Shown here piece after piece: positions 6,456 through 7,373 of a stretch of DNA of 33,382 bases. The position numbers and the translations under genes were made by a program. This DNA comes from a virus (lineage: Duplodnaviria; Heunggongvirae; Uroviricota; Caudoviricetes), in the IMG/VR virus record IMGVR_UViG_2874945390_000012; one strand, written 5' to 3'. Within the stretch, counting starts at the first letter, position 1. Every line of letters starts with the position of its first letter. The notes under the pieces were generated by a model, which was not told the origin of the DNA, did not search any database, and saw only the letters and a program-made list of their open reading frames with translations.

Positions 6456-6858
6456 TAATGGTGGCCTCCCATCGACGGGTGATTTCGATTCTGAGTGTGG
6501 TTTTGTCCGGGCGGGTTAACACCACCAGAAAGGCAATACGGTCAGGAATGATGATGCTGGCCGTGACGGTGGCGTTACGGGCGTAACCGGCACGCAGAAG
6601 CGGCTGCATGGACAGCCGCGCGTAATCTTCCACGCGCAGGCGGACATCTTCCGTCAGCTTTTCACGCTCAAGCAGCCACAGGCGGGAACCCCACGAAAAA
6701 TCGCTGTACGTGTCGCCCGGCCAGCCGCGCGGGTCGCCGGAGCCGTCAGGAATGACATCATCGTCATCAGCGCGGGCATCGGTGAAAAGGCAGATAAGAA
6801 CCTGAGTGACCAGCCCCTCATCCCGTGAGAGGCCGTTATGGGTGACGGTGATGTATTC
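6445..6858 (-). CDS. Baseplate protein, Mu gp46 / P2 gpW-like; open frame lacks a canonical start (possible frameshift)
   Basis: The stop-to-stop frame reads EYITVTHNGLSRDEGLVTQVLICLFTDARADDDDVIPDGSGDPRGWPGDTYSDFSW..., protein-like throughout, but the first ATG/GTG/TTG in frame is the GTG at 6633. The upstream gp45-like ORF overlaps it out of frame. Confidence 0.6.
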   Translation of the reverse strand, partial: EYITVTHNGLSRDEGLVTQVLICLFTDARADDDDVIPDGSGDPRGWPGDTYSDFSWGSRLWLLEREKLTEDVRLRVEDYARLSMQPLLRAGYARNATVTASIIIPDRIAFLVVLTRPDKTTLRIEITRRWEATINAV

Positions 6859-7373
6859 TCATTGTCGCCGTCCTTATGAATGTGTTCGCTGAATGATTTA
6901 CCCTTGATTCTGACATCTTCAGTAAATTCACAGGGACCGACGAATTTCATTTGTTTACCGATAATATTCAGCAGTTCGTCGGCAGTGAGATTTACCGTTT
7001 TCCCTGAAAAGTCTAATTGTTCTCCTGTGATTTCAATGACGCCGTTTTCCTTCAGGGTGATGTGTGATTTGCCGTCCCGGTGATACACCCTGACATCGCC
7101 GGGGGACAGTCCTTTCGGGCGACATCGCTTGTCTTCCACCGCGATGGCAACCAGCCCGTCACGCCGTCCGCCAACGGCCAGCACAATGGCTTCAGAACCT
7201 TCCGGCGGAACGGACGTAAACCCGTAGTTCTGGAAGCGTTCCACGTCGTCATCGGTGGCATCTGCCAGCGTCTGAATTTGCAGGTTCTGCCGTGCCAGAC
7301 CGTCAGACACCAGGCGGACAACAGCGCGGTCAACCATCAGTCGCAGGCGGCGGGCAATTGCGTTTAATCCCAT
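6654..7373 (-). CDS. Baseplate spike/assembly protein (Mu gp45 / P2 gpV-like) with an aberrant C-terminal extension
   Basis: N-terminal ~165 aa are protein-like (MGLNAIARRLRLMVDRAVVRLVSDG...). The last ~70 aa (SHGMRGWSLRFLSAFSPMPALMTMM...) are low-complexity and overlap the gp46-like frame, consistent with a 1-nt indel near 6860-6885. Confidence 0.7.
   Translation of the reverse strand: MGLNAIARRLRLMVDRAVVRLVSDGLARQNLQIQTLADATDDDVERFQNYGFTSVPPEGSEAIVLAVGGRRDGLVAIAVEDKRCRPKGLSPGDVRVYHRDGKSHITLKENGVIEITGEQLDFSGKTVNLTADELLNIIGKQMKFVGPCEFTEDVRIKGKSFSEHIHKDGDNENTSPSPITASHGMRGWSLRFLSAFSPMPALMTMMSFLTAPATRAAGRATRTAIFRGVPACGCLSVKS

Follow-up and report, generated by a model that had tools for sequence, protein, structure and literature searches.

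How the gp45-like and gp46-like baseplate genes of a Mu-like prophage come to be in conflict over their reading frames is the question raised by the locus described here. Within the window (the whole stretch of 33,382 nucleotides that was analysed), the gp45-like open reading frame runs out of frame across the beginning of the gp46-like gene, which itself lacks a usable start codon; such an arrangement might represent a native overlap, a frameshift by a single base, a sequencing error or the scar of a larger lesion. Comparison with intact relatives indicates that, very probably, a 57-bp deletion between 9-bp direct repeats excised the gp45/gp46 junction in a Mu-like prophage that is degraded and resides in Shigella boydii.

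Reading frames of the gp45-gp46 gene pair

The minus-strand sequence around positions 6870-6840 is CGGCGACAATGAGAATACATCACCGTCACCC; within it, GACAATGAGAATACATC provides both an ATG (6862-6860) and an overlapping TGA (6861-6859). Downstream of this TGA, the gp46 frame is open, and a scan for start codons found no ATG, GTG or TTG in this frame from 6858 to 6633, where the earliest candidate, a GTG, is located. The statements of the initial annotation on this point, namely, that the gp45-like frame reads across the gp46-like gene and that the latter has no start before the GTG at 6633, are thus confirmed. Its description of the overrun was less accurate: instead of about 70 codons, the gp45-like frame extends 61 codons past the length of the intact protein (63 codons are out of frame), and the tail, which had been described as low-complexity, is plain out-of-frame sequence that is not truly of this kind (SPITASHGMRGW...LSVKS followed by the stop).

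The remaining parts of both genes are readily recognizable. The authentic part of gp45 has the same length and frame as the intact protein WP_000523893.1 through ...DNENTSP, with 2 substitutions, and the gp46 remnant is identical to residues 16-150 of WP_000206060.1 (Table 1). A stop-free run of at least 63 codons in the frame of the tail appears in 11% of shuffles of the gp46 codons; the length of the overlap is therefore unremarkable and carries no sign of function.

Table 1. Coordinates of the gp45-gp46 locus and of other lesions in the prophage (window positions)
Feature	Position	Strand	Details
gp45-like open reading frame	7373..6654	minus	239 aa
gp45/V-like baseplate spike gene, authentic part	6846..7373	minus	residues 1-176 of 178
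Out-of-frame tail on gp45	6654..6845	minus	63 codons and TGA, derived from gp46 DNA
gp46-like (baseplate wedge 1) remnant	6445..6852	minus	codons 16-150 and stop, without start or ribosome site
Deletion junction	6846..6854	minus	sole remaining copy of ACATCACCG; relatives have two
gp44-like hub pseudogene, directly upstream	7364..8349	minus	stop at codon 279 of 356
Tail-fibre N-terminal-domain gene	1773-3171	minus	deletions at about 2128, 2289 and 2827, net -8 nt; stop at codon 128 of 468
203-aa hypothetical tail-region gene	13970-14579	minus	1-nt deletions at about 14206 and 14290; 110-aa and 75-aa open reading frames
160-bp deletion relative to FDAARGOS_943	22457-22460		4-bp microhomology at junction
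gp16-family gene	25885-26434	minus	1-nt deletions at about 26005 and 26063; stop at codon 165 of 183

Homology with the baseplate genes of phage Mu

The cryo-EM structure of the Mu baseplate (PMC11915804) identifies gp44 as the hub, gp45 as the spike, whose apex domain binds ions, and gp46 as baseplate wedge protein 1 (BW1), whose beta-sheet and the first sheath ring pair, initiating sheath assembly. The assignment of the two genes in the window to these families, made initially from the sequence of the window, holds in database searches. In particular, residues 16-83 of the gp45-like protein match the N-terminal domain family PF06890 with 99.9 bits (cut-off 24.1; E=8e-29), and the similarity to gp45 of Mu (PDB 9ki1_V), the spike or puncturing device, extends over the full length (E=5.6e-33). 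The gp46 remnant belongs to PF07409 (109.2 bits, cut-off 28.6), with profile positions 1-100 of 101 present, and intact gp46 matches Mu gp46 (PDB 9ki1_A) at E=6e-24, although the two proteins are only about 41% identical. Beyond the Gp45 N-terminal domain, the tail of the gp45-like protein has no Pfam match.

The region retains the gene order 43-44-45-46-47-48 of Mu (NC_000929). The H-x-H motif (HIH) near the gp45 C-terminus, which is conserved in Mu (GKSFSEHIHKDGD aligned to Mu GKSTDKHIHRGD), is likewise kept in the window. Genes 45 and 46 of Mu overlap by 4 nucleotides, as they do in the intact relatives of the prophage; unlike Mu, the window has the 45/46 junction deleted, and gp45 has thereby lost its proper C-terminus and stop codon, and gp46 its start. 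The native C-terminus and the stop codon located just after the apex motif are absent from gp45, with 63 out-of-frame codons in their place, and the gene in the window is a pseudogene of the Mu gp45/V family. Similarly, gp46 is without the features of a translatable gene: the canonical start and 15 conserved N-terminal residues are missing.

At the DNA level, no similarity of the region to Mu or SfMu was detected, and a search of phage genomes returned only two matches, with about 68% identity. By this measure, no sequenced phage is closely related to the baseplate module of the prophage.

A 57-bp deletion between direct repeats

Megablast of window positions 6400-7400 against complete RefSeq E. 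coli genomes identified 50 records in 49 genomes. Among the matches listed, all consist of two pieces, with 1058 record bases corresponding to 1001 query bases. In a three-way alignment with E. coli prophages from FDAARGOS_943 (99.5% identity) and RM11911 (95%), the window shows one clean gap of 57 columns that is flanked by ACATCACCG in both intact sequences, the flanks of the gap being base-for-base identical to those of the intact relatives. The repeat ACATCACCG is found twice in the intact relatives (positions 3547 and 3604 of locus L001), with a spacing of exactly 57 bp, and the two BLAST segments on either side share 9 bases of the window; the sequence that spans the junction in the window is AATACATCACCGTCACCC. 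The lesion does lie within 6845-6890, as proposed initially, with the junction at 6846-6854.

The intact alleles, which are present in FDAARGOS_943 and in many E. coli and Shigella genomes and differ from the window by the 57 bp at 99.5% DNA identity, encode a V/gp45 protein of 178 aa that ends with ...DNENTSPPV (WP_000523893.1) and a GP46 protein of 150 aa that begins with MTTEIRWNNMLSRGDITVTHNGL (WP_000206060.1), and the two genes overlap by 4 bases (ATGA). The deletion removed from gp45 the final two codons along with the stop, and from gp46 the ribosome site, both annotated ATGs (M1 and M10) and the first 15 codons. Because the two genes are in different frames, as dictated by the ATGA overlap, the loss of 57 bp mimics a frameshift even though this length is divisible by three. 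Given that both the intact relatives and Mu have the 4-nt ATGA overlap, the long overlap in the window is not native but the result of a lesion, as the initial annotation had supposed.

Two starts are annotated for the intact GP46 (L001 3561-4013), yielding proteins of 150 aa (MTTEIRWNN...) and 141 aa (MLSRGD...), respectively. The homology with Mu gp46, which extends from residue 5, favours the longer form.

The ends of the deletion are perfect direct repeats of which one copy was kept, and the length of the lost segment equals the spacing of the repeats; these features suggest that the short repeats misaligned during replication, which would amount to a slipped-strand, RecA-independent short-homology deletion. 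Deletions between short direct repeats were reportedly described by Albertini et al. in 1982 and by Bzymek and Lovett in 2001, the classical case being lacI of E. coli. The present deletion is like those of the lacI type in involving a perfect 9-bp repeat with one copy kept and a length equal to the spacing, and a second example, at an 8-bp repeat, is found locally, 800 bp away; it differs in that no palindromic element was detected between the repeats. Specifically, the deleted segment contains no significant hairpin that could have promoted slippage, and the intact 81-nt sequence folded as DNA gives -8 kcal/mol (z=-0.12). In a sequence of 33 kb, chance alone should produce 9-bp repeats no more than 100 bp apart about a dozen times, and the present repeat is therefore to be regarded as an available substrate, not as proof of the mechanism or as a special element.

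Distribution of the deletion allele

The window is 100% identical to CP026836.1, a sequence named as Shigella boydii (PMC12817139), across 17.4 kb. The exact 239-aa protein is encoded at two sites in CP026836.1, one at about 2.18 Mb, which corresponds to the window, and one at about 4.46 Mb, and the same protein is found on independently assembled Logan contigs from ERR200293, ERR200294, SRR4180506 and SRR5024211. The 57-bp junction is identical in all six loci, and these derive from five data sets that are independent of one another.

In the cluster of proteins formed at 90% identity, hundreds of contigs encode the 178-aa form; they belong to E. coli and to four species of Shigella, namely, S. 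dysenteriae, S. flexneri, S. sonnei and S. boydii. The 239-aa form is represented by one sequence, which is encoded on 5 contigs. The contiguous junction was found in none of the 49 complete E. coli genomes that carry prophages of this family, either by megablast or in a focused search with the 121-base junction, and exact 46-mer and 23-mer scans of the species-representative (GTDB) genomes did not detect it either. The 57-bp deletion is real, rare and lineage-restricted.

Alternative explanations

The initial annotation held that the insertion of an A behind the ATG at 6862-6860 had shifted the frame, such that the ancestral gp45 ended with ...DNGIHHRHP and gp46 started with MEYITVTH.... As far as the window sequence alone is concerned, the arithmetic is correct: removal of one A does produce ...DNGIHHRHP followed by a stop, and MEYITVTHNGL.... 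However, GACAATGAGAATACATCACCG, which precedes the junction, is identical in the intact relatives, where it encodes D-N-E-N-T-S-P of gp45, no homolog with a DNGIHHRHP end or a MEYITV start was found, and the gap relative to the relatives is 57 bp, not 1 bp, all of which refutes the 1-nt insertion and leaves it with practically no chance of being correct. The ATG in question is a chance out-of-frame triplet within the gp45 codons N-E that is present in the intact genes as well; the MEYITVTH start never existed, and the real N-terminus of gp46 is MTTEIRWNNMLSRGDITVTH. A sequencing or assembly artefact, with the 57 bp present in the real genome, is very unlikely too. The finished genome is probably based on long reads, and the 1-nt homopolymer differences elsewhere in the window are of an error-prone type, which could lend some credence to this explanation, but base-calling errors are not typically 57 bp long, and the junction is the same in both prophage copies and in the contigs from the four other runs; with six loci from five independent data sets in agreement, the sequencing error that had been considered along with a real insertion is refuted.

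The polarity of the change follows from the deleted segment itself: the deleted residues are homologous to Mu and the 57 bp contain the stop and start codons, so the long form is ancestral and the window represents the deletion. The intact gp46 N-terminus aligns to Mu gp46 from residue 5 (IRWNNMLSRGDI compared with IIWTN--GRGDI in 9ki1_A), with the deleted residues 5-15 corresponding to Mu residues 6-14 and IRWNN..RGD conserved, and a Klebsiella phage protein matches intact gp46 from residue 1. Coverage of the Pfam GP46 model says nothing on polarity, given that the model begins at residue 29, 3' of the deletion. The reverse scenario, in which the window is ancestral and the relatives gained 57 bp, is a formal possibility only and barely conceivable: the gained segment would hold the gp45 stop, the gp46 start codon(s) and residues conserved with Mu and the Klebsiella phage, and the window state leaves gp46 without a canonical start. 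Finally, the altered locus could be taken for a functional novelty, that is, a spike newly extended at its C-terminus or a gp45-gp46 fusion made by programmed frameshifting. The frame does remain open for 63 codons, but a run of equal length is obtained in the aforementioned 11% of codon shuffles, the tail lacks a family match, the gp45 frame has no X_XXY_YYZ slippery site, the neighbouring hub gene is broken, as are several further genes, and the allele is rare, all of which renders this explanation highly improbable. Programmed frameshifting was rejected specifically, given that there is no slippery heptamer and that the relatives have separate genes with the ATGA overlap.

Predicted consequences for tail assembly

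If translated, the spike would be expected to carry a nonsense tail of 63 residues after the H-x-H motif, in the region that matches the tip (apex) of the Mu spike. Judging from the loss of the start, the wedge protein that nucleates sheath assembly would not be made. Weak initiation of gp46 may occur at ATC 6852 or ATT 6753, or a 62-aa fragment may be produced from GTG 6633; neither the products of these non-canonical starts nor the fragment would be expected to restore function. Taken together, the altered spike, the wedge gene without a start and the broken hub suggest that the prophage is unable to build tails.

Decay of the prophage

The whole prophage was aligned with the near-identical prophage of FDAARGOS_943 using MAFFT, and each gene was then checked. 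Eight genes are disrupted, and the lesions include a second repeat-bounded deletion located 800 bp from the first. This second deletion affects the gp44-like hub gene, which carries an in-frame deletion of 84 bp (junction GTGGGCGG at 7668-7675, within a longer imperfect repeat) and a contraction of A6 to A5 at 7788-7792 that shifts the frame, so that open reading frames of 278 aa and 104 aa are now present instead of 356 aa. Both lesions in this gene are common to all six loci that carry the 57-bp deletion. The 160-bp deletion truncates two neighbouring genes, the DUF3486 gene at its 5' end and a 99-aa gene at its 3' end; the remaining lesions are listed in Table 1. By contrast with these disrupted genes, those for transposase A, B, Gam, Mor, lysin, large terminase, portal, protease, major head, sheath, tube, gp43, gp47 and gp48 retain the intact length and frame.

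The 203-aa hypothetical gene is intact in the sister copy of the prophage in the same genome (L005), and its lesions are therefore either private to the copy in the window or homopolymer errors of the assembly.

Prophages and genomes of Shigella are subject to decay, with accumulation of pseudogenes and expansion of insertion sequences. The present prophage conforms to this pattern, with multiple independent inactivating lesions and, in the sister copy, an IS66 insertion, and shows nothing distinctive against it. The 57-bp deletion is an ordinary pseudogenising deletion in a decaying Mu-like prophage, of a kind already known; it adds one more documented case of Shigella prophage decay via short-repeat deletions and opens no new question.

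For annotation, the implication is that both the 239-aa 'gp45' and gp46, which has lost its start, should be recorded as pseudogenes of a defective prophage, and that the region should be neither flagged as a sequencing error nor mended by removal of a base. More generally, a deletion of in-frame size that spans an overlap of genes in different frames mimics a 1-nt frameshift, and the sequence taken alone allows a plausible single-base repair to a state that never existed.

Two copies of the prophage in one genome

Comparison of window positions 4500-10000 with the second copy in CP026836.1 (L005, at about 4.46 Mb) reveals zero mismatches and zero gaps. This identical baseplate block of 5.5 kb carries all three lesions, namely, the 57-bp deletion, the 84-bp deletion and the A6 to A5 contraction. 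On either side of the block, the two copies are strongly diverged, at 3000-4500 (tail fibre) and at 10000-11500 (tape measure), and each of the two S. boydii copies has private lesions. One possible explanation, which we advance tentatively and consider somewhat more likely to be wrong than right, is that the dead allele was copied by gene conversion into another Mu-like prophage, which might still have been functional; if so, one decayed prophage disabled another. Alternatively, an element that was already tail-less but had intact A and B genes may have transposed and later recombined.

The transposition genes of the copy in the window, located at 30260-33382 on the minus strand, are intact in length and frame: B codes for an AAA ATPase of 316 aa and A for a Mu transposase of 698 aa. 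The start codon of A coincides exactly with the end of the window, and the ner/repressor end of the prophage lies outside the latter. At the opposite end, positions 1-162 of the window encode a 53-aa fragment of a DsbC_N domain, beyond which ahpC and ahpF come next in the chromosome (L004 17212-20246); the apparent insertion site of the prophage is dsbG. Compared with FDAARGOS_943, two short segments are mosaic or highly diverged: 9859-10060, in the C-terminal region of the tape measure (+63 nt), and 26438-27180, which surrounds a small hypothetical gene in the early region.
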